Part shown: one piece after another, positions 3,301-30,516 of the stretch
Layout of the letters: every line of letters starts with the position of its first letter
How positions within the stretch are numbered: the first letter of the stretch is position 1
NCBI GenBank assembly: GCA_003990765.1
Contig: RBNJ01000294.1
Span: 1 to 33,869, forward strand
Reading direction: 5' to 3'
Source of the DNA: Jimgerdemannia flammicorona
Lineage: Eukaryota
Length of the DNA: 33,869 nucleotides
Position numbers and translations under genes: made by a program
Notes under the pieces: model-generated
Seen by the model: the letters and a program-made list of their open reading frames with translations, nothing else
Told to the model about the DNA's origin: nothing
Database searches by the model: none

Positions 3301-4905
3301 ACTAGATTGGAACCTAGAGTTCATCCTGCAGACAGATGTAAGTACTATAGAACTTAGAGCAGTCCTAGCTTAGAAGAAAGATAGACATGAATATGTTATC
3401 TCCTATGTAAGCCAAGATATCCATAGAGCAGAACAGAACTATAAGTCATAAAAGCTTGAATGCTAAGCAGTAGTTTGTACAGTAAAGTTTCACTACTATC
3501 TAGCTAGGAAATACTTTATTATTTGAAAAGATCATTCTGCTCTTATCTGACTATTCAATAGTCTGAACCCCAAAGAAATATATACCAGATAGATATACAG
3601 ACTGTAAGAGTATGAATCTACTATTAAGTACTACTCAGAAAGAACTAATGCCAATACTGATGTATTCTCAAGGTCATCTTGAAATATCTTCAACAAGACT
3701 ATTCAATATGAATAATGAGCTATACTATAGATTAATCAGCTACCTTGGGTAGTAGAAGATGCCCAACCACCTCAAACTCTAGACTATCACCATCATCAAC
3801 TAGACTTTGAATCAATTTGAACTAGACAACACCACACTCAGAAAAGGAGAAAAGCTTATAATACCTGAATACAGAAGAATCAAGTAATAAAGGAAGTACA
3901 CAAACAAGGATATCTAGGAGGAACCAATATATATAACAAAGTAAGAAGAACTATATAGTGGCCTAAGATAGAAGAAGACCTATACCAATTTGTCAAAGAA
4001 TATGACAAGTACCAAAAACAGAAATAAGATCACTAAGACCAGGTACCCAGATCATCAAGAATTGAGTCTATCTCCTTCCACCACATCACAATGGATATCA
4101 TTGGATCACTACCAGTAATACTATTAGGAAACCACTATATTATAGTTATTATAGACCTCTTTATCAAATAGATAGAAGCAGGAGTATTACAAGAAGTCAA
4201 TACTCTCTCTATAGCTGACTTCCTGTACTAAGAAATCATTTGCTGCTACAAGACACCAAGGTAAATCACCACAGACCAAGGTATAGAATTTTTCAATGGA
4301 TTCTATATTCTATGAGATAATGTATTAGAAATATAAGATTCAGTATACCAAGACCACTACATACCATCCTCAAGGAAATAGATAGACAGAAAGAACCAAC
4401 AAGACTATCAAGAACATCCTGGCAAAGATCTCAGACACATATGACAATTGGGATAACTATCTCCCAACTACTCTCTCTGTCCTACAAGATATATAGTCAC
4501 AGAGTACACACTTTATCCCAAGAGAACTGCTCTTTGGAGAAGAAGATTCCAATAGAACCTTAGCCACAAATCTAGATCTAACTTGGAGATAGATTGACTC
4601 AGAAATCTGAAGACTACACCAAATCAGAAAGAAGGCTGAAGATTACATCATCAAGTTACAAGAACTGATAAGGAAGAATGCAGAAAAGAATCACAAGACC
4701 CTAGAACTCATCCAAATTGGAGAAAAGATCCTACTGTATTGAAATATGATAGAAGCCTCATAGTCATGAAAACTGGAGCCTATATGGAAAGGACCCTTCT
4801 ATGTATAAGATATTAAGAGAACTATCTCCTGGTTTAGAAAACTCTCAGAGACTGTACTACCTATCACAGTATACAGGAATAGACTCAAGAAGTACTATGT
4901 ATAAA
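349..4905 (+). pseudogene. gag-pol polyprotein remnant of element A (many transition-derived stops and frameshifts)
   Basis: ORF fragments 1932-2180 (dUTPase: TRSSLAK, GVINPNYTG, NRIGQ) and 2483-2740 (RT); end placed by homology with the B pol end. Confidence 0.85.
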
Positions 4906-5260: not shown

Positions 5261-5270
5261 AGGAGAAAGA
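5261..5270 (+). other. Polypurine tract of element A
   Basis: tattcAGGAGAAAGA directly before the LTR start; equivalent to B's tattcAGGAGGAAGt before its 3' LTR. Confidence 0.8.
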
Positions 5271-7077
5271 TATAATGGAGATCTCAGAATAATAATATTA
5301 GCACAGGAGTCAGCCTTTCTTTATAAGCTACCAGATCAGAGTATATATAAGAAGATCATATAGTATAACTTACCCAGGTTATAAGATGAGCAATGATGAT
5401 CAACTATGAGTCATTGTGACCATAAGAAAGATATCTTGAGGAATATATAACTCCTTATTATTGAGAGAAAGGATAATAAAATCCATTCTCTAAAGTTGGG
5501 AGGGGGGGAGAAGCTGCAGGATGAAAGTAACAGCTGTGATATTATGAGCTCCACATTCAGTTCTATGCCTCTGAGGTAACTTGCACAATTGATGGAAAAC
5601 TTGCATACAGTAATATAGAATACATAGAGTACATAAGAAAATCTCCACTAATAAAATAAAGATCAGTTGAGTGTCTAAAAAGTTGGATCTATTATGACAA
5701 CATCTTGAGAAATATAAAAGAAGAATCAAGAAACTACAGTAGCAGCAATCCAAACAAAGCTCACAAAATAGTTCAAAAGACTTACCACAAACAAATGCCT
5801 ACTGCTCACTAAACCTCAAGGTTCAGGAACTACCAAGGCTCCTCAGTCTAGAAAAGGATATTCTGAGACATCAGAAGAGTCATGAGGACCCATACAAGAA
5901 GGACTCCTAACATCAACCTGGATACTGGTGACCCTTATTATTATATTCTCTATTACTGAAAAATAGAAACAAGGATCACTATTACTACTGAATATCTCCG
6001 AATGTGACAGGAATATAAAATAAGAAACCTCCACTATCAGAAATTCCCTCAGGTCAGTCCCCAAGAAATATAAGATACCACCCCCATAGATATATATAAA
6101 ATAAGGACAGCTAAGAAGATTTATCAGGTCTTTAGGTATATACTATAGTCAATCTCCAACTTAGAGTATACTAGAATCTCAGACTTCAAGGAATGCTCAG
6201 CCTGCTGTACTAATGTACTAGAGTCCATAGTGGCCACAGAAGCCCAGTCCACTATAACCCTCAATAGTGATAAAGTAGAAGAGTTCTGGTATACCATCCT
6301 CCAAAACAATTCAGATCAATTTATGCAAGAATTGATCTCAGCATTCCAAGACCCCAGCATTCAGATTAGATCTCTCTAAGTCTCCATATTTGTTTCTTAT
6401 TTTATAGAAGAGAATGTTATATATTAGAGAGCCCCTGCTGAATATGATGATATTATTAGTAATAACATCATTCTGCATAATATATGCAAAACATACAAAG
6501 TAGATGAAATATTTGCAGATCTTATTTCCTTCAGCAGTAATGAAGATGAAGCCTCCATAGTTCTGAACATTCTGCTCTAATCTTGGTAACACCAAAGTCT
6601 TCTGGCTTTCTCTTTCTGTATAACTGAATTCTACTAGTATCCTTTTTCTGTAATATCTGAATCTTTGAGCACTCTTTTCCTATACTACTGAAATCTACTA
6701 GTATCCTGAACTTGTACAACTATTTGTATAGATACTTAAATTTATATTTACAACTATAGTTTTCTGGATTTTAGTATTTTATTTGGTTATTGAAATTTAT
6801 ATTTAGCTTTATAACTTAGCAACTACTGAATTATATTTTGTATAAATATTCCTCTTATTTCCTTTGAAATAAAGTCAGTCAAGTTTACTTACCCTCAATT
6901 CCATACAAATATCTTAGAGATAATAAGACAGTTTAAAGATAAGAAGTTTAAGGACTATAAGACCTTGGGAAGGCACTCTAATAAGAACTTGCTTATAACA
7001 AACTTATAGTAAGTCTAAGATATACACCTTGAAGAGAATCTGATATATTTGAAGAACTCAGAAACTACTATATAATA
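5271..7077 (+). repeat. Long (~1.8 kb) 3' LTR of element A
   Basis: Starts TATAATGG (mutated TGTAATGG) right after the PPT and ends TATAATA (mutated TATAACA). Homologous at both ends and over most of its length to the TSD-flanked copy at 15981-17477. TATA (gtataaata ~6840) and AATAAA (~6868) present. Confidence 0.85.
5795..6580 (+). pseudogene. LTR(U3)-encoded ORF of unknown function, 262 codons, frame intact but with internal stops
   Basis: ATG 5795 to TAA 6580 in one frame: MPTAH...DIRRVMRTH...QEYKIRNL...RTAKKIYQVF...ADLISFSSNEDEASIVLNILL*. Most stops align with sense codons in the second copy (16223-17030). Confidence 0.7.
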
Positions 7078-7836
7078 GTATATATATTCTGCTAAAAGAT
7101 GATCACAAATGTCATTTTTATAATATAAAATAATTTTAATTCCTCCTTTTTTTTTATTTTTTATTATTATCTGTTTTTAATATTTAGCTATAATTTGAAT
7201 ATATATAATTGATATTTTCATTGATAATATTGCAGCCATAATTATTTAAAATTACTTTGTTTGCAAGTAATAAATATATTGAACAAAAATGAAATTATTA
7301 TTATATAATAAAACAACTATAATGCAGATTATTGTATTTTGGTTGAGGTTTTCCCTAATAGTATGAAACTATTTATTTAAATTATCTCCACATTTTAGCA
7401 TTCTGAACAATATCAGTCAGATACTCCTTCTAGTAAATTGCTGTTATAGTATATCTGCAATATAGTACAGAGATATTTGTGAGTAATATTAGACTCTGAT
7501 AATATTGTTATCAATTAAGTTGATATATGGGTCATGTTTAAGACCATGTTTCACATGTTCAACTTGATGGATACTTTGAAAAATACTTGTTGGAAATGCT
7601 TTTTAGTTTTGACCCTCTAGCTAGTTGTTGTATATATAAAGTATATACTAATTCTTTAGAATATCAGATGATTGCAACTATATAGGGTATGTACTCCTTA
7701 AATATATATGTAGTAGAGGTATGCAAAGGTGGAATATATTTTAATACTAAATTGTATATGTTCTATATTGTTATTATTCTTAATATTTATTCTTTCTTAG
7801 TTAAATATATATATTATAAATTTTTTTTATTATCTA

Positions 7837-8104
7837 TATTGGATATATCTACTCTGATTATATCTGTATATATCTGATATCTAAATTTACTACAAATAGA
7901 GTCAGATAAATCTAGATATAGTTATATATATATTAATATTATATTTTATATCAATATCTACTCTACTATATTGATATGGTAACTCAATATATAGATACAT
8001 AATATTATACCATATATCATTCTATCATTTTATATCATTTATCAGTAATATATAAAATATATAACCTATACAACTTCAATAAAATTGCTCTCTCTTCTAT
8101 AATA
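7837..8104 (+). repeat. Putative 5' LTR of copia element E
   Basis: TATTGG...TAATA read as mutated TGTTGG...CAACA, ending 2 nt before the PBS; AATAAA ~8078. No partner LTR in the window to confirm. Confidence 0.4.
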
Positions 8105-8134: not shown

Positions 8135-8602
8135 TGTGATGATATAGCCAGATTTGGAAGAAGGAAATAGAGAACAGACACTTGATCACACCCAGTCCCA
8201 AAGTAGTATAGCCGCATAGTTAACAGTCCTTGATTTCGCAATCTGCTAAATATTTCGCAAAGTGCAAGATCGAGCTTCCCGATATAGTATAGCATTTCGC
8301 AACCTGCTGAATATTTTGCAAAGTGTTAAATGACTCATAACTTAGCCATGTAACTCAGTAACCATCTTATAGCTTGCAAACTTGTATAAATAACCCAGTA
8401 TCTTCGAGTGAATAAACCTCAGATTGAAATAGTTCAAAGCAAAAGAGATAGCAAAGGAACTAGTAAGCCTGTGGGCAAATACACTTCGAACTCACCCACC
8501 CTCCCCTGCAACTTCAAGAGACTCTGCAAGAGTCAGAACAGTCAAGTTTTCAAAATATAGAAATCTGACATACTTTCAAGAGTAAGTGTTCGCTACATTA
8601 CA
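8135..8602 (+). repeat. 5' LTR of element B
   Basis: TGTGATG...CATTACA; about 25 substitutions and no indels versus 14372-14839 by manual alignment (~95% identity). Confidence 0.97.
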
Positions 8603-8605
8603 ACT

Positions 8606-8623
8606 TAGTACCCATTGGCTGGT
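8606..8623 (+). other. Putative PBS of element B (cognate tRNA not identified)
   Basis: tagtacccattggctggt 3 nt after the LTR; the D copy (21582-21599) keeps TGGTACCCATTGGCTGGT. Confidence 0.6.
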
Positions 8624-8704
8624 GATTCAAGATGAATCCCTCACTTTCAAGCTGAATAACAAACAACCGCCACTACCCAAACCAAGCCCCAATACCCAGA
8701 CAAG

Positions 8705-11700
8705 ATGGATATGAGACCACCAGTATTCCATAGATATACCTCAGATGAATCAATTATCACCTTTATTGATGATTTCGAGCAGTATGCTGCTGTAAGGACC
8801 CTGACAGCAGCACAGCAAGTAGCCCTCATGCCCTTCAGCCTACGAGGCCCTGCCAGAGCAGTATTCACAGCCGCAACCCATGCAGGAAATGATGCCAATG
8901 CTATACTGACAGCACAGAAGACCTGGCTCTGAAATACATATTATACAGACGAGATCAAGCAAGCCCTGAAGGATCAGCTCAATATAACATGCTAATGAAT
9001 AAGCGAGGATCAAACACATTCTATATCAGAATTCGATATCAGATAATCCTTGCAGATTATGCTGCTGCTATCCAAGATCAAGTAGCCGAAGCAACCTTCA
9101 TGAAAGGAGTCCACCCAGAAATAGCCATGGCCATCCACTCATCACCAGTGATTCTGGATCTGCCACAGAAGGTCACCTATGCTCAGTGATACTGGATAGT
9201 CAGACATCCACAAGACCATATAATGGAAAGAGTCACAGGAGTCAGAATGGAGGCACCCAAGGCAACCAGTGTGATTCCTACCACAATGATCAATCAAAAC
9301 ACACCTCAGCTAAAAGCTACAGAGCAGCAAAAGAATAGTGACCCTATGGAGGAACTCGCCAAAAGATTTGCTGAAATGACTGCCCACCTGGGAGATGTGG
9401 TAAAGGAAATTCAAGGAAGAAACTGCCGCTCTGTTCAGAAGTTCACTGCCATCTCAGACAAGAAGAAAGGTACCTGCTATACTTGTGGAGAAGAAGGCCA
9501 CTACTCCTATGAATGCATGAGTGAAACCAAGTGCAAGGCACAACCAAGCAATGCTACACGAAACAAGGAGCAGGCCAATACAATTACCTTCAAGGAGAAT
9601 CAGAGATTCTGACAAAGAAGAATGGGAGGCCTATCCAGCTCAGACCAGCAAGAAGGATGCTTGCAAAGAACCCTACAAGAGACCACCAGGAAGACCCAAG
9701 AAGAACTCAGTGGAAAAGCAGATGGAAACTGCCACGGAAAGCCAAGCCAAAGAGATAGACCAAGATACAGAGCTGGAGCAAGCAGTTCAAGATATCATCC
9801 AAGGAATCACTCCAGCCAGCGAAGGAGAAAAAGAGAAAAAGCTTTGCAAGACCAAGACCTTCAAGTATGATATCTTCAAGGACCTCAGCCAATAAAAGGT
9901 CAATGCAACCTTTGGTCAGCTTGCAGAAATCTCAACATTCAGACAGCAAATGAGGTTTGGACTTGCTGAAACAACTAAGGAATAGGGATGGAAGATAACC
10001 GAGGCCAATAATGTTCAAGAGGACTCAGGAGAAGAAAGTGAGGACAATCGCAAAACCTCTGCATATGCAATATGCCAAATCAAAGATAGAATCTTCGAGG
10101 CCATCATTGATACAGGAGCAGGAGGATATCTCCTCAGCAAGAAGGCAGCAGACCACCTAGGTTGGGATGTAGAAGAAGCAACTAAGCTGGTGTTCATCAC
10201 AGCTGATGGCACAAGAGCTACATCTCTGGGAAAGATCCGAGATGTCCCCATCAAGATTAGAGGAGCAACCATCCCAGTAGATGTAATTGTAACCAATGCC
10301 ACTAACTATGACATCCTCATTGGCAATCAATAGCTTCACAAAGCCAAGGCAGTAATTGATCTCAATGCTCAGAAGATGCAGATCACCTACCAGGGACAGA
10401 AGATACGAATTCCCATCAATGTCAACAAAGGAGTCCTGCCCAACATAGAGGAAGAAGAGAGCAAGCAAGAGGAAGCTTATATGGTAACTACTCCAAAGAA
10501 GAAGAAAGTTGGATGGATGAGCAAAGAAGAATGGTGCAAGAAGATGGCAGAAGGCTATGCACCACAAGGAGTCTGTCCTCACTGGATCAAGATGTACTGC
10601 ATAGAGCACATCAATGATTGCTACCAGTGTACCATCGCAATCAGAAAGATCTACCAGGAAAGAAGACAGAAAGCTCTCGAAAAACAGATCAGGAAAGATA
10701 AGAAGGAGGAAGATGATGAACCACCAGCCCTCCTGGAGGACAGTGATGATGAAGAAGAAATCAAGGTCAAGATTCAAAAGATCCACCCTGATGCAGTCTT
10801 GCCAGAATACAAGTCAGAAAATGCAGCCGGAATGGACATCACTACAGTAGAAGAGACTGTACTGGAACTCCAGACAACCACCCTACTTGCAACTGGATTG
10901 GAGATGACCATCCCAAAGGATCATGTTGGGATTCTCAAGACAAGAAGCAGTCTGGCTAGAAGCGAAATTACAATTGAAGGAGGAGTCATCGATTCAGATT
11001 ACATTGGAGAAATTCTACTCATTGCTAGGAATCACAATTCTACAATCCCATTTCTAGTCAAGAAGAAGGACCGATTGGTGCAAATGTTGATCTTTCCGAT
11101 CCTACAACCAAAGATCATAGAAGTTAAGAAGCTGGAGGAAACAAGAAGAGGAAAGAAAGAATTTGGATCCACAGGAAGAGGAGTATTCACCAATACCAAG
11201 ATCACCGAACTCGAGCATAAGAAGGAGAAAAACACAACCAAGCACAGCTACACCATCGGAAATGAATTTCCACTTAAGAAAGAACTCAAGAAAATACTCC
11301 ACGAATTCGAGGATGTCCTTGTCACAGATTTCAAGGATATCAAAGGAAAGACCCCTCACTACTATCATGAAGTAGATACTGGAGACACTGAACCAATTTA
11401 TCAGAAGGCAAGACCTGTCCTGCCAGCCTACTGAGAATGGCTCAGAGAAGAAATCAAGCAGATGGAAGAAGCTGGCATCATTAAAGAAGCAAGCAGCCCC
11501 TGGTCCTCACCTGTTGTACTAGCCCCGAAAAAAGGTAGCAAGCCTGGAGAATTCGCCCCAAGACTCTGTGTTGACTACAGAAAGCTCAACATGGTTACCA
11601 AGAAGGATCGCCAACCACTGCCCCTCATCAATGACATCCTCATAATACTGGGAGATGAAGCACAGTATTACAGCACCTTGGACTTATACTCAGGATTCCA

Positions 11701-13883
11701 CCAAATCGGACTCACAGATACAGCAAGTGAAAAGTCAGCTTTCATCACTCCAGATGGAACCTACATCTACCTATGAATACCATTTGGAATGTGCAATGCA
11801 CCAGCAAGCTTCCAGTGAATGATGAACAAAATCTTCTGCTATGATATGAGAAGATGGATAATGGTCTACGTCGATGATGTAATCATCTACAGCAAGACAC
11901 CTGAGGAACATCTGCAGCACATACAGCAGATAATGGAGAAACTAAGACAACATGGCCTTTACATCAAACCCAAGAAGTGCAAGCTCGCAGAAATCAAGAT
12001 CTCCTATCTCAGCCACATCATCAACCGAGATGGAACACACATAGACCCCCTCAAGATACAAGCAGTGGCAGCATACCCAAGACCCACCACTGTTATGGAA
12101 GCCCAAGCCTTCATGGGACTCACCTCCTATTATCGCAGATTTATTAGAGGATTTTCTAATATTGTGGGACCAATCTACGAACTTAACAAGAAGGATACCA
12201 AGTTCCAGTAGACTGGCAGACAACAAAAAGCATTTGATGAACTCAAGGTCAGACTGACCCAGGCACCCATCTTCAGAAGACCTGACTGGACTCAAGAATT
12301 CATCCTACAGACTGATGCAAGCACACAAGAACTAGGAGTAGTCCTAGCTCAAAAGAAAGACAAAGTAGAGTATGTCATCACATACCTCAGCTGCAGAACC
12401 CGAGGAGCTGAAAAAGAATATGAATCCTACAAGTTGGAATGCCTCGAAGTCATCTGGGCCATAGAAAAGTTCCACTACTATCTGGCTGGAAGATACTTTA
12501 CCATTCAAACAGACCACTCAGGTCTCACCTGACTACTGACAACTGGACAACCCAAAGGAATCTATGCCAGATGGATAATGAAGTTGTAAGCTTATGATAT
12601 AACCATTGTACATCACTCTGGAAGAACCAATGCCAATGCAGATGCCCTCTCACAGATACCCTGAAGGACCCCACCCCTACAAAATCATCATGAATAAGGA
12701 GCTCTACTATGGAATTATCACATACCTGGGACAGCGAAAGATGCCCCAACATCTGGAAGAATGGACACAAATGATTATCAACAGAACATGGAAACAATTC
12801 GAAACCAATGGAGAAATACTGAAGAAAGGAAAACTAATAGTCATACTAGAACACAAGAAGGAGCAAGTGATGAAATTAGTATACAAACTTGGCCATCTAG
12901 GAGGAATGAATACATACAACAAAGCAAGAAGAACAATATGGTGGCCAGGGATGGAGGAAGATATCAGACAATTTGTCAAGGCCTGTGACAAATGCTAGAA
13001 ATAGAAACAAGATCAACGAAATCAAGCCCCAGGATCAGCACACATAGAACTAGTACCATTTGCCCACATTGTAATGGATATAATTGGTCCTCTACCCTTG
13101 ACTTTGACTGGCAACCGATACATCATCATCATTGTAGACCTCTTTACAAAATGGATAGAAGTGGGACCCCTTATGGAAGCCAATATACAGTCAATCACCA
13201 ATTTCTTCCACAAGGAAATCATCTGCCAGTTCAAGACCCCAACACAAGTAACTACAGATAGAGGAACTGAATTCGTGAACCAGTTCTTCAAAGTTCTCTA
13301 CAAGAAGTACAAGATCCAGCATATTCAGACTACAGCATATCACCCTCAAGGAAACAGACAAGTAGAAAGGACCAACAAAACCCTCAAGAATGTTATCACC
13401 AAGATCTGTGATAAATACGAGAACTGAGATCACTATCTACCAATAGCATTATCTGCTCTCTGGGATATCCGATCACAAAGTACCCACTTTATCCCTCAAG
13501 AAATGCTGTTCGGAGAAGAATGTTCTCAGGGAACCTTATTATCCAATGGAGATGCTGTATGGAAACATGTAGATATAGAAATACAGAGACTACATCAAAT
13601 AAGAAAGAAGGCTGAGGATTACATAACGAAGGTGCAGACACTACAATGGAGGAATGTGGAAAAGACCCACAAACCCTTGGAGATTATCAAGATAAGAGAC
13701 AAAGTCCTAGTGTATTGGAATATGGTTGAAGCTTCATAGTCATGAAAACTGGAGCCCAAGTGGGAAGGACCTTACCTTGTGCAAGATATAAAAGGAACCA
13801 CCTTTTGGCTACGAAAACCCTCAGGCACAATAATCCCCACCACTATTCATCGAAACCGACTTAAGAAATATCATGGCCAGTAA
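8705..13883 (+). pseudogene. gag-pol polyprotein of element B (gag, CCHC knuckle, aspartic protease, dUTPase, RT, RNase H, integrase), disrupted
   Basis: CYTCGEEGHYSYEC 9475-9516; AIIDTGAG ~10100; RT LCVDYRKLN and YVDD ~11867; RNase H LQTDAS ~12305; integrase TDRGTEF and TTAYHPQGN; WEGPY ~13761; stop TAA 13881-13883. Stops are mostly CGA>TGA, TGG>TAG/TGA, CAA>TAA. Confidence 0.95.
10760..11176 (+). CDS. Trimeric dUTPase domain within B pol, between protease and RT
   Basis: All five motifs in the open frame 10376-11434: AGMDI, RSSLA, GVIDSDYIG, DRLVQ, RGKKEFGSTG. Confidence 0.95.
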
Positions 13884-14334
13884 CAAAAGTACTGTGATGG
13901 CACTCAAGATCACTAGTGCTGCCCAAAGAGCCATTGAGAGGCAATGGTGCACCACCGAGCCTCCAACTATAGAGGAGTCTTATGATAGTATCCAAAGCAT
14001 CGTACAGACTCATCTCTCTCGGATCTCACACTTCAAGGCCTATCAGCATCGAAACGAATTCCAAGAGTACTTCAAACTCAGTCAAGTACTCAACCAAGAC
14101 CCAGAAATGACCAAAGAAAATTGGATCGCAGAATCTCAGCTCTCCTATTCCCAGATCACCATCGCCAAGAGAATCTACAAGCTATTCTGAGAGGATGAAT
14201 CAGCACTAGTGCACCTGTGAGGAGTGACCCCTGCAGACTTTGACCGAGTCAGACAACACTATTGGGAAACAGTAATGTAACAAATTGCACAATACAAGAC
14301 CATACAGACCATTGAAGCTTGGGAGTTTGAATAA
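13873..14334 (+). pseudogene. Extra ORF (ORF3) of element B, ~153 codons, unknown function
   Basis: ATG overlaps the last 11 nt of pol; 105 aa open, continuing in frame through three single-transition stops to TAA 14334. Homologous to the LTR-encoded ORF of family A. Confidence 0.75.
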
Positions 14335-14361
14335 ATGCTTTAGAGACGAGATCATCTATTC

Positions 14362-14370
14362 AGGAGGAAG
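14362..14370 (+). other. Polypurine tract of element B
   Basis: AGGAGGAAG one base before the 3' LTR. Confidence 0.85.
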
Positions 14371-14371
14371 T

Positions 14372-14839
14372 TGTGATGATATAGCCAGATTTGGAAGAAG
14401 GAAATAGGGAACAGACACTTGATTGCACCCAGTCCCAAAGTAGTATAGCCACATAGTTAATAGTCCTTGATTTCACAACCTGCTAAATATATCACAAAGT
14501 GCAAGATCAAGCTTCCCGATATAGTATAGCATTTCACAACCTGCTGAATATTTTGCAAAGTGTTAAATGACTCATAACTTAGCCACGTAACCCAGTAACC
14601 ATCTCATAGCTAGCAAACTTATATAAATAACTCAGTATCTTCGAGTGAATAAACCTCAGATTGAAATAGTTCAAAGCAAAAGAGATAGCAAAGGAACTAG
14701 TAAGCCTGTGGACAGATACACTTCGAACTCACCCACCCTCCCCTGCAACTTCAAGAGACTCTGTAAGAGTCAGAACAGTCAAGTTTTCAAGATACAGAAA
14801 TCTGATGTACTTTCAAGAGTAAGTGTCCGCTACATTACA
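14372..14839 (+). repeat. 3' LTR of element B
   Basis: Direct repeat of 8135-8602, followed by TSD gtag. Confidence 0.97.
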
Positions 14840-16222
14840 GTAGCTATAGCAAATATATTTCTTTAAATATAGATACACTATACTAGAATTATCAGATGAT
14901 TAGTCTAGTAATATAGATATATTAATTACAAGTATTCTCATAGATATAATCTCAATAGATATGGGAAATATAGTTCTAGTTATAAGTATAAATAGAGCCA
15001 AGTGGTCTATCTTGAGCTTTTACAGGAAAGTTTATATTATTTGAATATTCCATATTATGAATCTCCTTGACAAATATGGCTCAGCAGAGTATACAAAGTT
15101 ACAAGTACTGATTCAAGATTACAATGCTTCAAATAATTACTGAGTATTATATAAGATTATATTCATATTATTAAATTCTCAAATGAAGCTCATAATATAT
15201 ACTATGATATATAGCTTATAAGATATAGAAGACTTTATATAATTATCATATATAAGCATCTATATTAAATTGATTTTACTTGAAATCTCAACTATTCAAT
15301 TTATGAATAAAATCTAAGAAGAGCATCTATGAATACATCAGTTATGTTGATAATCTGATGAATTAAGTAAATTCTCTCAGTACATCTGCAGATTATATTG
15401 GCAATAATAATAAGGTTATAGAACTTATAAGAGGACTTCCAGATGTATATACATAATGTTATTATTTAGCTATATATAGAAGTGGCAGACTTATAAACTA
15501 TATCTATATAATAATATCTTCTATAGATCCTGTAAATGTAGTTCCAAATGAGATCAAAGTACAGATAATAAAACCAATAAACCAAAACCCAAAATCAATA
15601 CAATAATAGTCAATCAACTAAGTATGATAGTTACTATGAATATTATATATAGAAAAAACTATTATTATTACTGAGAAAATGATAAGGAGAGTAGTGAAAA
15701 TAAACAATATAGAAGCTAGCATTGACAATATCAGGGTAATAGAAAGAACTATTGAGGTAAAGGAAAGTATATAATATAAATACTACCAAAAGAGATGATA
15801 ACAGTGGTGTATTTTTTGTATAAGCAATATATATAGATGACTATATTTTTACCACTAAATCCACTGATCTGTCATCTACAAATCCTGGTCAGTAAAATAA
15901 TTTTGAGTCAATAAAAAGTGATAATGATATCAGTATCTAAGAGAGAAAATATCAACAGAGTGAGCAGTATACATTACTATTGTAATGGTGACCCCAGAAT
16001 GATGACATCAGCACAGGAGACAGCCTTTCCTTATAAGCCACCAGATTGGAGCACAAGAAGATCATACGGCATATAAGATGAGCAATGATGACCAACTGTG
16101 AGTCATTGTGACCACAGCATGAGCATCCTGAAGAATATAAAAGAAGAATCAAGAAACCACAGTAGCAGCAACCAACAAGAACCACCAATCCCAAAATAGC
16201 TCAAAGACTTACCACAAACAAA

Positions 16223-17030
16223 ATACCTACTGCCCACCAAACCTCAAGGTCAAGGAATCATCAAGGTATCTCAGTCGAGGAAAGGATGTTCCAAGACATC
16301 AGAAGAGTCATGAGGACCCACTCAAGAAGGACTCCTAGCATCAACCTGGGTACTGCAGACCCTTATCACTTTATCCTCTACTATAGTGAAATGGAAACAA
16401 GGATCACTATTACTACCAAATACCTCCAAATGTAACAGAAGTATGAAATAGGAAATCTCCTCTACTGGGAGTTCCCACAGGCCAGCACCCAAGAGCTACA
16501 TACAAGATGCTACTCTCATGGATATATGTGAAACAAGGATAGCTAGAAAGATCCATCAGATCTTCAGGCATGCACCATGGTCAATCCCTAACTTGGAGTA
16601 TGTTAGAGTCTCAGATTTCAGAGACCTATCATCCTGCCATATCAATGTACTAGAAGCCAGGGTGGCTACAGAAGCCCAGTCCACCATCACCCTCAACAGT
16701 GAAGAAGTAGAAGACTTCTGGTACCCTATCCTCCAGGACAACCCAGATCAATTTCTGCAGAGATTGATCTCAGTATTTCAAGGCCCAAGCATCTGAGTTA
16801 GATCTCCCCAAGACCCCACATTTGTTTCTTATTTTGTGGAAGAGAACCTCATAGACTGGAGAGCTCCAGACCTTGTCTCCGATTTCCCTGCCACAGCCGA
16901 ATGTGATGATGTCATCGATGACATCATTCCGCATAATATTGAAGTATATGAAAATGATGAATTCACAGATCTCATCTCCTTCAGTGATGATGATGATGAA
17001 GCCCCCATAATCCTGAACTTTCTGCTCTAA
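16223..17030 (+). pseudogene. Second copy of the LTR-encoded ORF
   Basis: Start ATG>ATA at 16223, a 4-bp taca duplication near 16497-16504 shifts the frame, two internal stops. Contains track ORFs 16518-16796 and 16836-17030, which share one frame. Confidence 0.75.
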
Positions 17031-17048
17031 GTTCTTTGTTAAACTAGA

Positions 17049-17168
17049 TAATGCCAGCACCAGTATTCTTATGTAATACTGAATAATGCCAGCACCAGCA
17101 TTCTGAGGTGATGTGAAATTGTTCCAGCACCGGTATTTTGATGTGATACTAAATAATGCCAGCCCTGG
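17049..17168 (+). repeat. 35-bp tandem repeat (~3.4 units) in U3 of the solo LTR
   Basis: Units begin at 17049, 17084, 17119 and 17154 (taatgccagcaccagtatt...). Confidence 0.85.
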
Positions 17169-19012
17169 AACTTAGTAGTTTTAGTTATTGGAATTTATAT
17201 TTAGCTTTATATCTTAGCAACTATTGAATTATATTTTGTATAAATACCCCTCTTATTTCCTCTGAAATAAAGTCAGTCTTCTCAGTGCAATATACACACT
17301 TTCTTGCAAGCAATCTAAGAGATAACAAGATAGTTAAAGATAAGAAGTTTGAGGACTATAAGATCTTGGGAAGGCACTCCAATAAGAACTTGCTTATAAC
17401 AAACTTGAGTTAGTCTAAGAGATATACCTTAAAGAGAATCTGGCATATTTGAAGGACTCAGTGACTACTATATAACACTATATATCTGATGAATGCACTG
17501 CAAACATAGTTAATAACAACAATATCTAACTAATAAATTCTAGAGCCATGTAATATATAATACTATACAGAGAATAATTCTCTATATATAAGCCTTTCAA
17601 GTATTCTATATCTTTCAAAATAGGAGATAACAATGTTATCTATACTCAAAGAAAGGGAAATATAGAAATATATCTCTATAGTAATATTATAGAACTCACT
17701 AGTATCATTCTAAATATACTATATACTTCAGAAATCAGTAAAATCTCTTTTTGATAAACAAGATGATGTTCTGTAATAATAAATATATATATATATGTTC
17801 AAAGAGCAAAACTGTATATAATTTAGATAACAAAAAGCTAATAATAGTCTTAAATGAGATACTGAATAGTGTAAAACTCTCTATATATGTGATAACTATG
17901 TCTAATATATCCAATATATAGTATTAATACTTAGAAAATATTGGCAAATTAAGCCTTGAAAGAATGATCTAAAGTGGCTCAGTCAATAAATTACTGATAT
18001 ATATATATCTGAAGAATAACCTTTATAAGATATATATAGAAAACAAAACATTCTAGCAACTATTCAAGAAATGATTAAAGTGTGCATCAGAGATTCTTGA
18101 CCTTATATATATAGATATATGTGGGCTAATATATATACTATTGTACTCTAGAAAGAAATATTTTATTATATTTATCAATTATTATATATATAAAGTATAT
18201 ATATACTTTTTATTAGTAAAGAGTGAATTCTTAGATAAATTCAAAGAATTCAAAGTGATCACTGAGAATAAGACAAGATATAGAGAGCATGCTATATAAT
18301 TAGATAACAGATACAAATACATTAATAATATATTCAAGTAGTTTCTAAAAAAAATATAGTATATATTATCAAATTACAGCTCCTTATATATCTCAACAGA
18401 ATGGTATAGCTGAGCAATTTAACTATATAATCATTAAAATAGTTTGAATGATGATTAATATACTTGATTATCATATTCTTATTAGATCAAAACTATTAAA
18501 ATAGCAGTATATATATATAATTGATATATTTCTCAAGTACTAAGCAAAGGGTCTAGCAACAATAAGTATTCCAGAGATAAGAATCTTATCTCTAAAGAAT
18601 TGTAGAGTAAAACTAAGTCTGATATATCTCATCTATATTTATTTGGTTGTGAGACATATATCCTCAATAAAAATAATACCAATTAGTATAAATTTGAGCC
18701 AAAAGTAAGCAAGTATAGATTTCTTAGATATTCTAGCAAGACATATTAACTCTGGGATTCACACAAGTAGTATATAGTTATTTTGTATAATATATAGTTT
18801 AGAGAAAAAGGAAATCATCTATCCTATATAGATATATCTATCAGTATTTCTATATATATCTCAGCTAGTATAAGTGCACATCTATCATCTATCTCTCTAG
18901 TGATCAATCAAAATTATTTTCAACTACTATATATATCAGAGTCTGAGCTAGAGTTGCTAAGAATAATAGAGATCAAAGATAAAGATAATGGTGAACTCTC
19001 CAGTAAAGAGAG

Positions 19013-19948: not shown

Positions 19949-21083
19949 GGTAGAGGGAGTATAAGTTGTGAAAAGAGAACTTAGAAGGTTGTCTACTAAA
20001 TCTTATGACCAGTAAGATAGTAGAGAAAGAGGTATCAGTAATGAGAGATCTTCTATCTCTATAAAGAATAAGTAAAAGTACTCTAACATTTACTAAGAAA
20101 CTTGTTCTGATTTAGAAAATTATTGAAATATATTAGCAAGTACTAAATAGCAATATTTGGACTATATATGCTATGCCAAAGTATATATATATATATATAT
20201 ATATTATAATATCTTCTAATGAGTCAAATATATATAATGAAGCTATAACCAGTTCTGATAAAGAGAAATAGAAATAAGCTATGGATGAAGAATATGATTT
20301 ACTTATCTAGAATAGTATATAGGATTTTGTATCTCTTCTATCAAATTGCTAAATAATTATATCAAAGTGGGTCTATAAAATCAAGCATAAGAACAACTGA
20401 AGCATAGAGTGATATAAAGCTCATTTCATTACCAAGAGTTACTTATAAGATTACAGCATAGACTACAATAAGGTATTTTCACTGATATTCAAGCTTACTT
20501 CACTTAAAATACTCCTTGTAATCAGTATGCTATATAATCTAGAGATCTATAAAATAGATATAGAGATAGTATTTCTGAATAGTAATATAGATATTAAACT
20601 ACATATCTATCAATTATAAGAATATGAAAATAGTGAGCTTATATATAGATTATATCAGAGACTATATGATATCAAATAAGCAGAATAATTCTAAAATAAA
20701 AAGATTGATGAATATATCCATAATGATAGATTTATATATTGTGAAACAGATAATTATATATATATCTAACATTATAATAATAGAAGCATAGTATTTATCA
20801 GTATTTGAATTGATAATATAATTATTATTGAAAACAAGAATAGGCTTAACAGAGTCAAAGAAGTCCTCTACTGAGAATTCAAGATAATAGATTTAGACAA
20901 TATATCCTTTCTTTTAGAGATATCCATTAAATGTAATAGAAATACATATACTATACATCTCTTATAAGTGATATATACTTAAACAATCCTTAAATATTTT
21001 AATATAAGTAATTGTAAGTCTGTTGGCACTTATTTATAAATTAAAAAAGCTGAACACTATAATCAAGAATCATAACAATATAC

Positions 21084-21578
21084 TGTGATAGTAGATCTAA
21101 ATTAGGAATAGAAATCAGAGAAATTAGGCATTTGATCACAGTATCTAAACCCAATTCCTAATATAGTATAGTCTTATGAATAGTAGTTATTATTATTTCA
21201 CAACTGTAAAAGTTTTTATAAATATTGAACTCTTTACAAATATTGAAGATTTTGTAGGTATTGAAAATTTTGCAGATGTTGAAGATTTTGCAGATGTTAA
21301 ATAATTCAATACTTGTAAAAAGTGACTCATAGGAAATATAGTCATAACTTAGCCACCTTATAGCTAGCAAACTTATATAAATAACTCAGTAAATAAACCT
21401 TAGATTGAAATAGTTCAAAAGCAAAAAGAAAGCAAAGGAACTATAAAGCCTGTGGGCAGATATACTTTGAACTCACCCACCCCTGCATCCTGAGGACTCT
21501 GTGGAGTAAAAAGAAGATTAAGTTTCTAAAATACAGAAATCTGACATACTTTCAAGATTAAGCATCTGCTATATTACA
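21084..21578 (+). repeat. 5' LTR of element D
   Basis: TGTGATA...TATTACA, followed by acTTGGTACCC; 3' half aligns with the B LTR. Confidence 0.85.
21222..21300 (+). repeat. 18-bp tandem repeat (~4.5 units) in U3 of the D LTR
   Basis: Unit approximately tgttgaagattttgcaga; explains the (FNICKI)n shadow ORF 21158-21370. Confidence 0.8.
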
Positions 21579-24500
21579 ACTTGGTACCCATTGGCTGGTG
21601 ATTTAAGATGAATCTCTCACTTTTAAGCTGAATAATAAATAACTACCACCTGAACAACCATACAAATTGAACTAAGATATCCAGACAAAATAGATATAAG
21701 ACCACCAGTATTTCATAGTTACATATACTTCAGACAAGTCAATCATTACCTTTATTGATAATTTCAACCAATATACTACTATAAGGGGCCTGACAGTAAG
21801 GCAGCAAGTAACCCTCATGCCCTTCAGTCTCTGAGGACCAGCAAGAGCAGCATCACAGCTACAACCCATATAGAAAATGATGATAATGCTATGCTAGCAG
21901 TATAGAAGACCTGGCTCCAAGCCACATACTATATAAATGAGATCAAGCAGGCACTGAAGAATTAGCTCAATATAATATACCAAGAAATGAGTGAGGATCC
22001 AAATATATTTTATACCAGAATCTGATATCAGATAATCCTTACAGATTATACTATCACTATTAGAGATTAAGTAGCTGAAGCAATCTTTATACTCAGAGAT
22101 AGCCCTGGCTATCTACTCATCATCAATAGTTCTGGATCTAATACAGAAGGTCACTTATATTCAACAATACTGAATAGCCAGATATCTACAAGACTATACA
22201 ATGAAGAGAATCACTGGAGTTGGAATCAAAGCACTCAAGGCAACCAGCATGATCCCTACTATAGTGATTAATCAAAACACACCTCAACCAAGAGCTACTA
22301 AACAATAGAGAAATAGTGATTATATAGAGGAACTTGCCAAGAAGTTCACCAAAATGACAGCCTACCTAGGAGATGTAATAAAGGAAATTAAAGGAAGAGA
22401 CTGCCACCTAGTTTAGAAATTCACCATCACCTCAGACAACTTACTATATCTGTGGAGAAGAAGACCACTACTCTTATGAATGTATGAGTGAAACTAAGTA
22501 CAAAGCCCAACTAAGCAATACTACTTGAAATCAGAATTAGGTCAACATTATCACCTTTGAGGAGATTGAGAAATCAGATAAAGAGAAATAAGAGACCTAT
22601 CCTGCACAGACCTCTAAGAAGGATGTCTACAAAGAACTCTACAAGAGATCACCAGGGAGATCTAAGAAGAACTCTATGGAAAAGCAGATAGAGACTTCTA
22701 TAGAAAGTCAAGATAAATAAATAGATCAAGATATGGAGCTAGAATAGGCTGTTTAAGATATCATCCAAGAAACTACTCCAGCTAGTGAAGGAGAAAAGAA
22801 GAAGAAGCTTCACCAAACCAAGACCTTCAAGTATGATATCTTCAAGGATCTCAGTCAACAAAAGGTCAATACAACCTTCAGTCAGCTGGCAGAAATATCT
22901 ACATTGAGACAGTAAATGAGATATGAACTTGTTGAGACAACTAAGAAGTAAGGATGGAAGATAACTGAGGCCAACAATGTTCAAGAGAACTCAGGAAAAG
23001 AAAGTGAAGACAACTGTAAGATCTTTGTCTATACAACCTATCAAATTGAGAATAGAGTCTTTGAGACTATCATTGATACCAGAGCAGGAGGATGTCTTCT
23101 CAGCAAAAAAAGCAGCAGACTGCCTAGGTTGGGAAGTTGAGAAAGTAACCAAATTGGTATTCATCACAGCAGATGGTATAAGAGCCACACCTCTGGGAAA
23201 GATCTAAGATGTTTCCATCAAGTTTGGAGAAGCAACCATTCTAGTGGATGTAATTATACTAATGCAACCAACTATGACATCCTTATCAACAATCAATGAC
23301 TTTACAAAGCCAAGGTAGTAATTAATCTGAATACTCAGAAGATGCAGATCATCCACTACAAACAAAAGATTCCAATTCCCATCAATGTTAACAAAGGAGT
23401 CCTGTCTGAGATAGAGGAAGAAGAGAGTAGACAAGAGGAGGCCTACATAGTGACAACTCAGAAAAAGAAGAAGAAAATCAGATGGATGAGTGAAGAAGAC
23501 TGATGTAAGAAGATTATAAAAGGATATGCACTATAAGGAGTCTACCCCCATGGGATCTGAATGTACTGTATAGAGCTTATCAATGAGTGTTACCAGTATA
23601 CTGGTAAAATCAAGGAGATCTACTACCAAAGAAGAGAGAAAGTCCATAAGAAACAAGTAAGAGAAGAAAAGAAAATAAAAGAAGAAGAGAATGATGAACC
23701 ACTAGCTCTTCTCAAAGACAGTGATGATGAAGAGAAAATCAAGATCAAGATTAAGAAGATTCATCCTGATATAGTCTAATCAGAATATAAGTCAGAAAAT
23801 GCAACTGAAATAAATATTACCACAGTAGAAGAAATGGTACTTAAACCCCAGACAACTACCCTACTTATAACTGGTCTGAAGATGACCATTCTAAAGGACC
23901 ATATCAGAATCCTCAAGACAAGAAGCAGTCTGGCTAGGAGTTAAATCACAATTGAAGGAGGAGTTATCAATTTAGACTATATTTGAGAAATACTACATAT
24001 TACTAAGAACTACAATCCTATGATTCTATTCCCAATCAAGAAGAAGAACTGACTGGTATAGATATTGATCTTTCCAGTTCTTCAGCCAAGAATTATAGAA
24101 GTCAAGAAGTTGGAGGAAATAGAAAGAGAAAGGAAAGAATTTGGATCTATAGGAAGAGGAGTGTTCACTAGTATCAAGATCACCAAGCTAGAGTACAAGA
24201 AGGAGGAAACTACAAACAAGCACAGCTATACTATTGGAAATGAATTTCCACTCAAAATGGAGCTCAAGAAAATACTCCACAAATTTGAGAATATTCTTAC
24301 CATAGACTTCAAGAATATCAAAGAAAAGACTCTATACTACTATCAAGATATAGATATTTGAGATACCAAACCAATTTACCAGAAGGCAAGACCTATCCCA
24401 CCAGGCTACCAAAAGTGGCTTAGAGAAGAAATCAAGCAGATGGAAGAAGCTAGTATCATCAAGGAGGCCAGCAGTCCCTGGTATTCACCAGTTATACTAG

Positions 24501-25007
24501 CTTCAAAGAAAGTAAGCAAGTCTGGAGAATTCACTCCAAGACTCTGTGTTAATTATAAAAAGCTCAATGTAGTCACCAAGAAGGATCACCAACTACTGCC
24601 CCTTATTAATGATATCCTTATAACTCTGGAAGACAAAGCATAGTATTACAGTACCTTGGATCTATACTCAGAATTCTACCAAATCAGACTCACAGAAACA
24701 GCAAGTGAGAAATCAGCCTTCATCACCCCTGATGAAATCTATATCTACCTGCAAATGCTATTTGGAATGTGTAATACCCCTGTAAACTTCTAGCAAATGA
24801 TGAATAAAATCTTCTGCAATGATATGAAAAGATAGATTATAGTTTATATAGATGATATTATTATATACAGCAAGACAGCTGAAGAATATCTGCAGTATAT
24901 CCAGCAGATGATAGAGAAGCTGAGACAGCATAGGCTTTACATTAAGCCCAAGAAGTACAAGTTTAATTGAGATCATCTATCTTGACTACATCATCAATCA
25001 AGATAGA

Positions 25008-25471
25008 GGTAATGGTTCTAGTTTCTTTAAGAGGAAGTGGCTTAATCTGGAAGCTCTAGCTGGTCTAAAGTAGCTTGAAGAGATACTTAAAGATTCAAGT
25101 GTTCTTGAAGGATTTCTGGGAGAAAATATTCTGAGCTTTATTTAGGCAGAAAATAAGGATATTTATATATAATCTAAAAGAAAGATTCAGAAGGATCTTG
25201 GAAAGAAAGAAAAATGCCAAGAAATAAGTTCTCAGCAAAGCTGACTAATACTATTCTACAATGTTCCAAAAGGTTCTATAACTAGCTAAGACAAGATACT
25301 TAGTATCAAGAAAAGATAAGAATGTTCTAGTGATGTCTGGGTGCTAATAAAAGGTTTCTAAGCAAGTAGAAGGTAGTAGAACATTGTAGAATATTTAAGA
25401 AATAATAAGAAAAGACTAACTAAAAGATGTGAAAATATACTAAAACTAAATATGACTGTGAAATTATTATA
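25008..25471 (-). repeat. 3' LTR of element C
   Basis: Direct repeat of 30517-30978; preceded on the minus strand by PPT aaagagagaga. Confidence 0.92.
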
Positions 25472-25809
25472 TATCTCTCTCTTTAAAAACTAATATTCTT
25501 ATTGAGTTCTTAGGTAATATAAGACTAGATATATTTAACCAAAATTTCTCAAACTTATATTGGTACATTGATAGGGATTGGCCATCCTCATATAGGGCAG
25601 AGGACCTATTACCAGACTAACTAACTAGGAGAGATTTGAACCCAGCTGATAGCTTCATTTCAGTGGACTTCTTATTCATTAAATATTCTGCTGGTTCCAG
25701 GGTCCCCAAGTAAACTTCTAATGCATAAGACACTGGTCATTGCCATAGGTTATTGACAATCCAAGGAAGTCACTACAGGGATTGGACAATATATTTTGCT
25801 TCAAAGATT

Positions 25810-28800
25810 TAAACTAGATCTTGAGAGTTCTTAAGATTGACCAGTAGTTCCCAGATAGCATTATATTCAGGATAGCCCATCCCTTGACTAGATATTCAGG
25901 ATGGTGGTAGTAGATTTGTTTTTCAAGAATTTTCTCAGCTTTATACTTAATATGATCTTCAATAATCATAGAGATAGATGGCTTAGAAATATGACCAGGG
26001 TAGAGCAGTAACTGGTTCCAGGTATTGAGGTGTGACACATGAAAGACTAGGTATACTCTCATGGTTTCAGGTAGCTTGAGATGATAGGAGGATGCAGAGA
26101 CTTGTTCAGTAATCTCAAAAGATCTAATATACTTAGATTGAAACTTGTTTGAAGGACAGTTGACTTGAGATTATATCTTGAGATTCTTAGTAGATAGTAG
26201 GACTTGATCTCCAACAGTGTAAGTAATATTATAGTATTTCTTATCAGTATACTTAGCTTGATGCTGTTGAGCCTTCTGAAGATTCATAGTGGTAATCTTG
26301 AGTAGTTCATCCATTTTGTCTATAAGGCTCTTGATAGTAGGGACTTATATTTGACTGCTTTTCTTAAAAGAGAAGAGAATTGCAGGGGTTTTGGGATCTT
26401 GACCATAGAGTAACCAGAAAGGAGAAAGACCAGTAGATGATTGGACAGTATTATTATATGTATATGAACTCTATATAAGTCAGATAGTGGTCTCAATCAT
26501 CTTACTCATAAAAAACATAGTTTCTAAGCATTTGTTCTAGAGTTCTATTCATGTGCTCAGTTTGTCAATTAGTTTGTAGGTAAAAGGGTGTAGACTTAGC
26601 CAATTGGATTCCCAAGGTCTTGAAGAGAGTTTGCCAGAAATAGCTGGTGAACTTGGAGTTATAATTACTGACAATTACTCATAGCAGGCCATAGTGACAG
26701 AAGATGAACTTGAAGAAGATTCTTACAATCTCAGGTATAGTAGCATTAGTGGAAATTGGTAGTAGTTATAGAAAACTGGCTGTCACTTGGTTGGTAGACT
26801 TATTGCACTGGTTTAGATCACAGCTGACAATATAGTTCTTGATTTCCTTGACCATACTTAGCCAATAGTAGTAGTATTGAATGTTCTTGACAATCTTCTT
26901 GATTCCCAGATAACTAGTAAGAGGGGAGTCATGGTATTCTTACAAAACCTTATAGCATAGGTTCAAGTTTCCAGATAGGTAGACTTGGTCTTAATGATAG
27001 ATCAGGTTGTTCTCAATAATATATGTATCCTTGAGCTTATTTGAGAAAACTCTAGTAGTGACTGTATCTTTTTTGTAAACTTGCCTAATTTGGTCTAGGA
27101 ATTCTAATACCAAGATAACTTGCATTATTGTGATCAGGGTATCTTGATAAGGCATCTGATACTATAAGTGTCTTGCCAGGCTTGTAAATGATCATCAGGT
27201 TGAAGGTTTGAAGTTTGAGGCTCCACTTGGCTTATAGACATGACAGAGTAGATTGGGTATTGATGTACTTGAGAGATTGATGGTCAGTAATGACATCAAA
27301 CTCAATATCTTCTAGATAACATTATTAGTAGTCTAGTGTATATATTATTGTCAGTAGTTCCTTCTCATAGGTGGCTAGTTAGCTGGGGCCAACTTGTGGG
27401 ACTCAAAAGTAATGAGATAGTGTCCTTTGCCATCATCTTATGACAGGACTACTCTAATGGCAAAATTCAATACATTAGTAGTGACTATGAATTTTAGGCC
27501 TTGATCTGCATTATGTAGAACTGGAGTATGGGTCAGGTGGTTCTTGAGTTCTTGAAAAGCTTGTTGACAGAAGAGGTCCCAGGTATAGGGTATATAGTGG
27601 TCCAAGTGCTGGGCCTTTCTCATGAGGTTAGTCAGTGGCTTGGCAATGCCAGAGAAGTTTCTGACAAAGCATCAGTAGTAGCCAGCTAAATCAAGGAAGG
27701 ATCGGAGTTCTGTGAGATTTAACAGAATGGGTCATTCTTCAATTACTTCTATCTTGTATAGGTCTACTTAAATTCCTTGTGCAGAGACAATGTGGCCAAG
27801 ATATTTGACTTATTTCTTAAAGAATTTGCACTTCTTAAGCTTAGCATAAAGCTTGTGTTTTTGCAGGAACTCTAGGACTATTCAAATATGTTTGAGGTAT
27901 TCTTCTTTAGTTGTACTAAAGATCAGAATGTCATCAAGATATACCAAAAGGAAAATAAATAGTTAGTCCTTGAATATCTTATTTATTAAAGTCTAGAATG
28001 TAGTGGGTACATTGGTGAGACCAAATGATATAACCAACAATTCATAGAGTCCAAAGGAGGTCATGAATACAGTCTTAGAAATATCTTCTAACTTGATTTG
28101 AATCTGGTGATATCCTGACATAAGATCAAACTTGGTGAAGTATGTACTTGGCATTCTTGAGGGTATCAAAGATTTGATCAATCAAGGGTAGCAGATAGTA
28201 GTTCTTAATAGTAAGCTTGTTAAGTATATGATAGTCTATACAAATTCACAGAGTACTATCCTTCTACTTGACAAATAAGACTGATGAGCCATAAGGAGAT
28301 TTACTTGGCTGGATGGCTTCTTATACAAGTAGTTCTTCTAGTTTCTTAACTACTTCAATTTTGAGTAGTGATATGTGGTATATATGTCTCTTAGGTAATA
28401 TAGCTCCTGGGGTCAGTTTGATTTCATAATCAACTTCTCATGTAGGTGGTAGATCAGGTAGCTTGTCTGGAAAGACATTCTTGAATTCTTCTAGCAATAG
28501 CTTAATACTTTCATTCACTAATAGTCTCTTGTCTTATTTCTTGGGATGGACCATTATAATAAAGGTATATATTGTCTTCTTGAGTACTCTCTTATACTGT
28601 ATAGCTGACAGTGTTACAATCTGGGTCTTCCTCATGGTCTTGTCTGTCTTGATAGTGATGTTGGCTCCATGTTGAAGTAAGGTAACTTCATTCTTATATC
28701 AATTGATATCTGGGATATATTTTATATGCCAGAGTTTTCCTAGGATCAGATTATGATCTCTTAGTAATGTAATCTCAAAGTCTACTCATTCCCAATATTT

Positions 28801-30490: not shown

Positions 30491-30500
30491 GATATAATGG

Positions 30501-30514: not shown

Positions 30515-30516
30515 AG

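Follow-up and report, generated by a model that had tools for sequence, protein, structure and literature searches.

A 1497-base unit in a 33,869-nucleotide stretch of DNA (contig RBNJ01000294.1, whose whole length is here called the window) is a solo long terminal repeat (LTR) of a retrotransposon family named A, and it carries the decayed remains of a protein-coding gene in what is probably its U3 (unique 3′) region. The reading proposed here has four parts: the unit is an LTR, the gene lies in U3, the gene belongs to a real protein family, and the copies in the window are dead. Its probability is put at about 70%. An earlier note, made from the letters of the window, had described the unit as a gene-bearing solo LTR whose gene is doubled at every transposition and left behind by recombination between LTRs. 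For the family, the LTR, the U3 gene, its doubling and its persistence hold up, whereas the copy in this particular solo LTR is no longer a working gene. The features that define the unit are:

15981-17477, plus strand: solo LTR of element family A, 1497 bases, beginning with TG (15981-15982) and ending with CA (17476-17477)
15977-15980: left copy of the target-site duplication, CTAT, identical to the right copy
17478-17481: right copy of the target-site duplication, CTAT

Both the TG..CA ends and the perfect CTAT duplication are present as the earlier note had reported them, and a four-base flank match is expected by chance with a probability of ~0.01 at ~25% G+C (own arithmetic). The flanks of the unit are AT-rich and unrelated to the internal region of element A. 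With TG..CA ends, a target-site duplication and no adjoining internal sequence, 15981-17477 is a complete solo LTR. Its assignment to family A comes from a second copy in the window, which follows the polypurine tract of element A, and the related element B provides the reference for both:

up to 5270, plus strand: internal region of element A, followed by the 3′ LTR at 5271-7077; the 5′ end lies outside the window
5261-5270, plus strand: polypurine tract of element A, AGGAGAAAGA, aligned with its counterpart in B
5271-7077, plus strand: 3′ LTR of element A, 1807 bases, with ends decayed to TA..TA
8135-14839, plus strand: element B, a related full-length Ty3/gypsy element with paired 468-bp LTRs that are 94.7% alike and lack the open reading frame (ORF) of the A-type LTRs

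In BLASTN, positions 1-162 of the solo LTR match 5273-5450 of the A LTR (74%), positions 144-1050 match 5701-6580 (76%), and positions 1185-1495 match 6764-7075 (84%). Together with the tract at 5261-5270, these matches bear out the claim that the unit is an LTR whose sequence also follows the A polypurine tract. The tract AGGAGAAAGA itself aligns with AGGAGGAAG, which precedes the 3′ LTR of element B. The A 3′ LTR has ~250 extra bases at 5451-5700, just ahead of the region upstream of the frame, and these are flanked by a repeated ATCTTGAG(G/A)AATATA-like motif at 5433-5450 and 5704-5720. Either A gained these bases by insertion, or the solo lineage lost them by deletion between short repeats.

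Other copies of the unit were sought in contigs from four public runs, placed at a likeness of at least 80% (1904 contigs in X1, 183 in X4, 241 in X6 and 445 in X2). Two of the runs are soil metagenomes and two are of an organism, the material is DNA or of unknown kind, and the contigs are ~110-260 bases long. The summed depth in X1 rises from 8.5 to 1234 at the bin starting at 15984 and falls from 1840 to 5 past 17474; steps of one to two orders of magnitude occur at both LTR ends in all four runs. Contigs that exit before 15981 read ...TTATTCAGGAGGAAGA (six in X1, three in X4, five in X6 and one in X2). These letters correspond to the last part of an A-type internal region, purine tract included, and the unit is therefore found as a 3′ LTR as well. 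At the other end, a contig of X4 that extends 123 letters past 17477 and a contig of X2 that departs at 17470 enter ACTTGGTGCCCATTGGCT, the counterpart of the primer-binding leader that follows the B 5′ LTR at 8603; on the basis of only these two short contigs, the unit appears to occur as a 5′ LTR too.

The first 20 bases, the TATAAATA-AATAAA core and the last ~60 bases of the solo LTR align with the B LTRs, and the TATA box stands 250 bases from the LTR start in B versus 1260 in the solo LTR. By this alignment, the A-type LTR appears to be a B-type LTR (~470 bases) with ~1 kb added in U3. The gene and the regulatory features around it are as follows:

16223-17030, plus strand: decayed accessory ORF, solo copy, ~268 codons, with its natural stop TAA at 17028-17030
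15981-17268, plus strand: putative U3, assigned by position, ahead of the TATA box and the poly(A) signal
17239-17246, plus strand: TATAAATA, presumed promoter of the full-length RNA, aligned with a motif in both B LTRs
17266-17271, plus strand: AATAAA poly(A) signal, the only AATAAA of the LTR, aligned with (G)AATAAA in B
16134-16143, plus strand: TATA-like AATATAAAAG, ~80 bases upstream of the frame start, a candidate U3-internal promoter on sequence grounds
17048-17163, plus strand: tandem repeat of 35 bases in 3.3 copies, between the frame stop and the TATA box, a candidate enhancer

The LTR encloses the whole frame, which begins 242 bases after the LTR start. As the earlier note had argued, it stands upstream of the TATA/AATAAA core, a core shared with element B, and by position it would therefore belong to U3. 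A quite unlikely alternative is that the gene is real and lies in a very long R (repeat) region, with RNA running from 16134-16143 to the AATAAA at 17266. In that case, the full-length RNA and a short LTR-only messenger RNA (mRNA) would both have the frame as their first cistron. The TATA-like AATATAAAAG just ahead of the frame agrees with such an arrangement, as does the fact that the 100 bases before the frame (16124-16222) are where the two LTR copies agree best, with 81 of 93 aligned bases alike. Moreover, rice Retrosat2 has been proposed to have an R of ~2 kb (PMC3485330). However, the TATAAATA-(~20 bases)-AATAAA core is common in place and sequence to element B, whose LTR has no frame. 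The shared core is most simply read as serving one and the same purpose in A and B, and this places the frame in U3. In addition, a poly(A) signal within a 1.1-kb R would truncate most 5′ transcripts.

The earlier note had also credited the solo LTR and the A LTR with the same ~260-codon frame. The two frames are indeed homologous, but neither is open: the solo copy has four lesions, and the second copy has nine stops:

5795-6580, plus strand: decayed ORF, copy A, with the ATG kept and 9 in-frame stops

The lesions of the solo copy are ATA in place of ATG (16223-16225), the stops TAA at 16433-16435 and TGA at 16794-16796, and a frameshift caused by a tandem TACA duplication at 16497-16504, and its longest stop-to-stop piece is 114 codons. 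In tblastn, the family member P0005 matches the solo copy in two frames (73% over residues 1-93 and 70% over residues 92-271) and copy A in one frame (59% over residues 1-271). A tblastn-type search of the rest of the window, element B included, gave no further match to the ORF family. Both window copies are pseudogenes decayed mostly by transitions, which make up 136 of the 168 differences between them. Among the sites listed at which the solo copy has T and the majority of copies has C, the next base is A at 7, C at 8 and G at 1, and the decay does not look centred on CpG, unlike what deamination of methylated CpG would be expected to leave.

In the contigs from the public runs, these lesions are missing from most other copies. 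At 16225 they read G in 614 of 676 depth units in X1, 27.3 of 27.3 in X4, 83 of 87 in X6 and 208 of 210 in X2. At 16435 they read G in all four runs, and at 16796 most of the depth in X1, X4 and X2 is G, with no depth at this site in X6. At 16500, the site of the TACA duplication, contigs exit the window in all four runs. The lesions are thus private to the solo copy or rare. An A family whose full-length elements had short 5′ LTRs lacking the frame had been named as an outcome that would speak against the gene; no joint that skips the frame occurs in the 2773 contigs. As the contigs are short, the presence of the frame in 5′ LTRs would follow from the mechanism of LTR duplication together with this absence of a frame-skipping joint.

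Intact members of the family were found in protein databases. A word-indexed search of 5.8 billion proteins returned five relatives at 63-83% identity, one of which is a complete form of 271 amino acids, with a shared start, MP..(R/H)QTSRSRNHQG, and a shared end, ...LNFLL. Six proteins at E <=0.001 came from a profile search of 1.84 billion representatives; five of them are real, and the search added P0008-P0011, down to 29% identity. Overall, ten relatives are known at 29-83% identity. The distant members keep the blocks W.EYEI, AKK.HQ.F.H.P, LQD.PDQ.LQ and F.GP.I, and P0010 and P0011 retain both the core motifs and the charge pattern. The sixth profile hit, P0012 (E = 6e-4), is a low-complexity repeat protein and was discarded. 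P0007 was left out of the alignment for its foreign tail, the last ~36 residues of which match the minus strand of 6537-6692 (E = 1e-4); its contig seems to contain an inverted or chimeric LTR copy. A metagenome-contig locus, L001 (30% over 78 residues), shares only the seed peptide KLNSEEVEDF, is full of stops, and was rejected. Scans of genome contigs and viral contigs found no related loci.

It is very improbable that there is no gene at all and that the database frames are gene-caller output on a repeat that lacks stops by chance. All relatives do lie on short, unannotated contigs (778-1625 bases), and evidence from RNA or protein is nil; the 17 runs listed as carriers of the sequence include none of RNA, which says nothing about expression. 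However, an open frame of 271 codons at ~40% G+C has a chance probability of the order of 1e-7 (own estimate), and codon-position skew, in-frame gaps, a synonymous excess and conservation at 29-47% identity are unexpected of non-coding DNA. The antisense strand serves as a comparison: aligned over 90 residues, the antisense frames (16770-17171 and 6338-6679) are 50% alike, less than the 59% over 271 residues between the sense frame of copy A and P0005, and they have no database relatives. The antisense frames were rejected as candidate genes.

The pattern of change in the frame is that of a coding sequence under constraint. Of 259 codons compared between the window copies, 57 differ at the first position, 39 at the second and 72 at the third (chi-square p = 0.002). 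A ratio of nonsynonymous to synonymous rates (dN/dS) of about 1 had likewise been named as speaking against the gene; it is 0.35 between the window copies (245 codons, 17 skipped), versus 0.74 and 0.87 in the wrong frames, and since these controls also fall below 1, a transition bias inflates dS and the value of 0.35 overstates the constraint somewhat. Gaps between the window copies measure 27, 3, 3 and 3 bases, plus one 4-base duplication, so that four of the five are multiples of three. In the public runs, among the length changes listed, those inside the frame are of 3, 6 and 12 bases (n = 3) and those outside it of 1-2 bases (n = 9). Taking the best 40 of 356 rows, the majority differs from the solo copy at 27 frame sites, of which 17 are third positions and 14 are synonymous. 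Copies also differ by 3, 6 or 12 bases in the GAT/TGA triplet run at 16984-16999, which codes for the aspartate stretch in the tail.

These patterns also bear on the improbable case that the frame is a passenger, that is, a piece of host or foreign coding sequence captured into U3, sometimes open and of no use to the element. Such an origin would agree with the lack of a known family, fold or function, with the death of both window copies, and with the frame DNA being 78% alike, no better than the regulatory ends of the LTR (81-87%). Nevertheless, a passenger would drift, whereas relatives down to 29% identity keep length, motifs and charge pattern; the low dN/dS relative to its controls and the restriction of three-base length changes to the inside of the frame point the same way. 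No longer or cellular-looking homologue appeared either, in 2424 candidates and among the five real hits of 1.84 billion representatives. The search for fused forms among these longer candidates gave none, which is weak evidence. From these comparisons, the frame belongs to a real protein family with intact members and carries signs of purifying selection, and the gene appears to be kept in active lineages of the A family.

Several points weigh against the proposed reading of a real gene in the U3 of the A-type LTR. Neither window copy is open, and no single intact copy was seen joined to an LTR end in contigs of ~110-260 bases. The U3 placement is by position, and the transition bias tempers the estimate of constraint. 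The databases contain called ORFs only, so intact forms are selected by design. P0009-P0011 are known by their protein sequences and not by the DNA around them. Finally, the proposed function has no support from homology, as there is no Pfam or PDB match and the structural models are poor.

At each reverse transcription, both LTRs receive their U3 from the 3′ end of the RNA. A new A insertion would thus start with two copies of the gene, and recombination between its LTRs would leave one; two copies per insertion and one in a solo LTR are expected because this mechanism of reverse transcription is established. The frame lies upstream of the only AATAAA of the LTR, and its mRNA would end where the full-length RNA ends. 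This mRNA could start at the U3-internal promoter (16134-16143) or, alternatively, could arise by splicing of the full-length RNA. If the U3-internal promoter is used, each LTR, a solo LTR included, would be a self-contained gene. It is unlikely, however, that each LTR is indeed such a gene, with its own U3 promoter, a 270-codon frame and its own poly(A) signal, and that it makes a trans-acting nuclear regulator. If that were true, the family would build a shared pool of helper protein in which dead or solo copies supply the live ones, and solo LTRs, which are usually counted as inert scars or promoters, could be coding.

The protein has a basic head and an acidic tail. In P0005, the head carries a net charge of +8 over residues 1-60 and contains RRAMRTRTRR, the conserved core is helical, and the tail has a net charge of -23 over residues 151-271 with 9-13 bulky hydrophobic residues per 30, a kept DLISF motif and a hydrophobic C-terminus. 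The acidic-hydrophobic tail reported earlier at the end of the window frame is present. Neither the window protein nor eight relatives matched any Pfam family (E up to 1), no PDB sequence matched at E up to 10, and the ESM Atlas gave no relative, with a best feature score of 0.83 and all structure TM (template modeling) scores <0.5. AlphaFold2, which had been suggested as a check, gave poor confidence on the family, with a mean pLDDT (predicted local distance difference test) of 35.7 for five sequences and 46.7 for eight. Comparison with 48,161 chains by VIA-align gave only long-helix matches at residues 43-98 (Z <=5.4), below the bar for helical models, and no DNA-binding fold. Clathrin-box, SUMO-interaction, Atg8-interaction and nuclear-export readings of DLISF and ILNFLL were rejected, as the needed aromatic or acidic positions are not kept in all relatives.

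The best guess is that the product is a putative nuclear regulator of the element's own expression. Its composition and charge pattern tentatively suggest an acidic transcriptional activator acting on the LTR, and this is a possibility that falls short of even odds. An adaptor for the export of unspliced RNA, like Rev or CERV, is a doubtful candidate, guessed from the basic head and the leucine-rich end. The remaining probability lies with functions other than these two. The transactivator or anti-silencing factor suggested in the earlier note would likewise draw on charge pattern and composition.

To our knowledge, LTR retrotransposons rarely carry accessory genes, and most of these genes lack an explanation; the known ones are internal and are lost on collapse to a solo LTR. 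Among retroviruses, sag of mouse mammary tumor virus lies in U3, and nef of the human and simian immunodeficiency viruses (HIV/SIV) and bel/bet of foamy viruses overlap the U3 of the 3′ LTR. The gene described here would resemble these in being a U3-encoded accessory gene that is duplicated in both LTRs and stands at the 3′ end of the full-length RNA. In contrast, sag, nef and bel/bet belong to vertebrate retroviruses and the carrier here is a putative Ty3/gypsy element with dUTPase and without env; moreover, nef and bet only overlap U3, whereas the present frame is wholly inside the LTR. No sequence relation of the family to the sag, nef and bel proteins was found (Pfam, E up to 1; PDB, E up to 10).

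Among Ty3/gypsy elements, the protein CERV of Caenorhabditis elegans Cer1 is encoded by a spliced Cer1 mRNA, and the Cer1 LTRs are 491-492 bases long (PMC10309623). CERV is likewise a family-specific gypsy accessory protein without known homologues, and it acts in the nucleus on the RNA of its own element; in contrast to the present case, no statement placing CERV in the LTR was found in the excerpts of that paper (PMC10309623). Additional ORFs of plant and fungal LTR retrotransposons include the env-like frames of Athila and Bagy2, the antisense frames of Grande, RIRE2 and Retand, and brtn of Boty (PMC7264820; PMC8365987). These too are conserved extra frames of unknown function in most family copies (PMC7264820), but they are placed there 'in the internal region', on either side of gag-pol, whereas the frame here lies in the LTR and survives in solo LTRs. 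The phrases 'within/in/inside the LTR' are absent from that review (PMC7264820). Rice Retrosat2, RIRE3 and RIRE8 have LTRs >3 kb and an ORF0 (PMC3485330). Retrosat2 shares with family A an unusually long LTR and an orphan frame, which in Retrosat2 evolves faster than pol; it differs in that ORF0 belongs to the internal region, where it precedes gag-pol (PMC3485330), and Retrosat2 is a plant element without sequence relation to the present one. The ORF3s of bdelloid elements are likewise in the internal region (PMC5408684). Fungal Ty3/gypsy elements with dUTPase comprise PosPlaTy3-5 and elements of Phanerochaete and Tuber; an 'add. ORF' stands in a figure legend of the paper on PosPlaTy3-5, and its excerpts hold nothing on a frame in the LTR (PMC2864245).

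A search of the full-text literature, subscription papers and supplements excluded, found no Ty3/gypsy frame inside an LTR; a match for 'gene within the LTR' proved to be a host gene inside the body of an element. Within this literature, a self-contained LTR gene with a trans-acting regulator was not found described for Ty3/gypsy. A U3 gene would be doubled with each insertion, would outlive the element in the solo LTR, and would share its 3′ end with the element RNA as sag and nef do. If the protein regulates the element, a retrovirus-like layer of control would have arisen independently in a probable fungal gypsy lineage. For annotators, the family means that orphan proteins in soil metagenomes can derive from LTRs.

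The window as a whole is a nest of LTR retrotransposons within very AT-rich DNA, as mapped by self-comparison. The G+C content is 22-29% between elements, versus 36-45% in the better-kept elements, and the low intervals are 7001-8000, 15001-16000, 17001-19000 and 20001-21000. Two further elements lie to the right of the solo LTR:

21350-25007, resuming at 30979-32481: B-like element, split by element C
25009-30978: element C; its LTRs, 463 bp each, are 88% alike, and its minus strand encodes a Tf2-type SH3 domain

Element B is flanked by GTAA/GTAG, and Pfam domains identify a CCHC gag, a protease, a dUTPase between protease and reverse transcriptase, an RNase H and an integrase. The order protease, reverse transcriptase, RNase H and integrase, together with the CCHC gag, marks B as Ty3/gypsy (Metaviridae). 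The internal region of A is 66-68% identical to B over 836-4848, and the A family is accordingly placed, through B, in Ty3/gypsy, the domains having been demonstrated for B and the assignment of A being a probable one by identity; one piece of the element A frames gave no match to Pfam. The dUTPase between protease and reverse transcriptase is the arrangement described for fungal PosPlaTy3-5 (PMC2864245), and this likeness is the main reason to think that the host is a fungus. Element B is likewise decayed, with its coding region broken over many frames, and a search with its 366-aa protease/dUTPase piece gave three matches. The other frames of the window gave no Pfam match except the SH3_Tf2-1 domain in element C, and a scan of the window for transfer RNA genes and Rfam families found none. 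An inverted piece of the element C LTR lies at 62-348, on the 5′ side of element A. A few soil-metagenome contigs, with a likeness of 80-90%, also align with the right flank of the solo LTR at 17518-17690, which may be another low-copy repeat.

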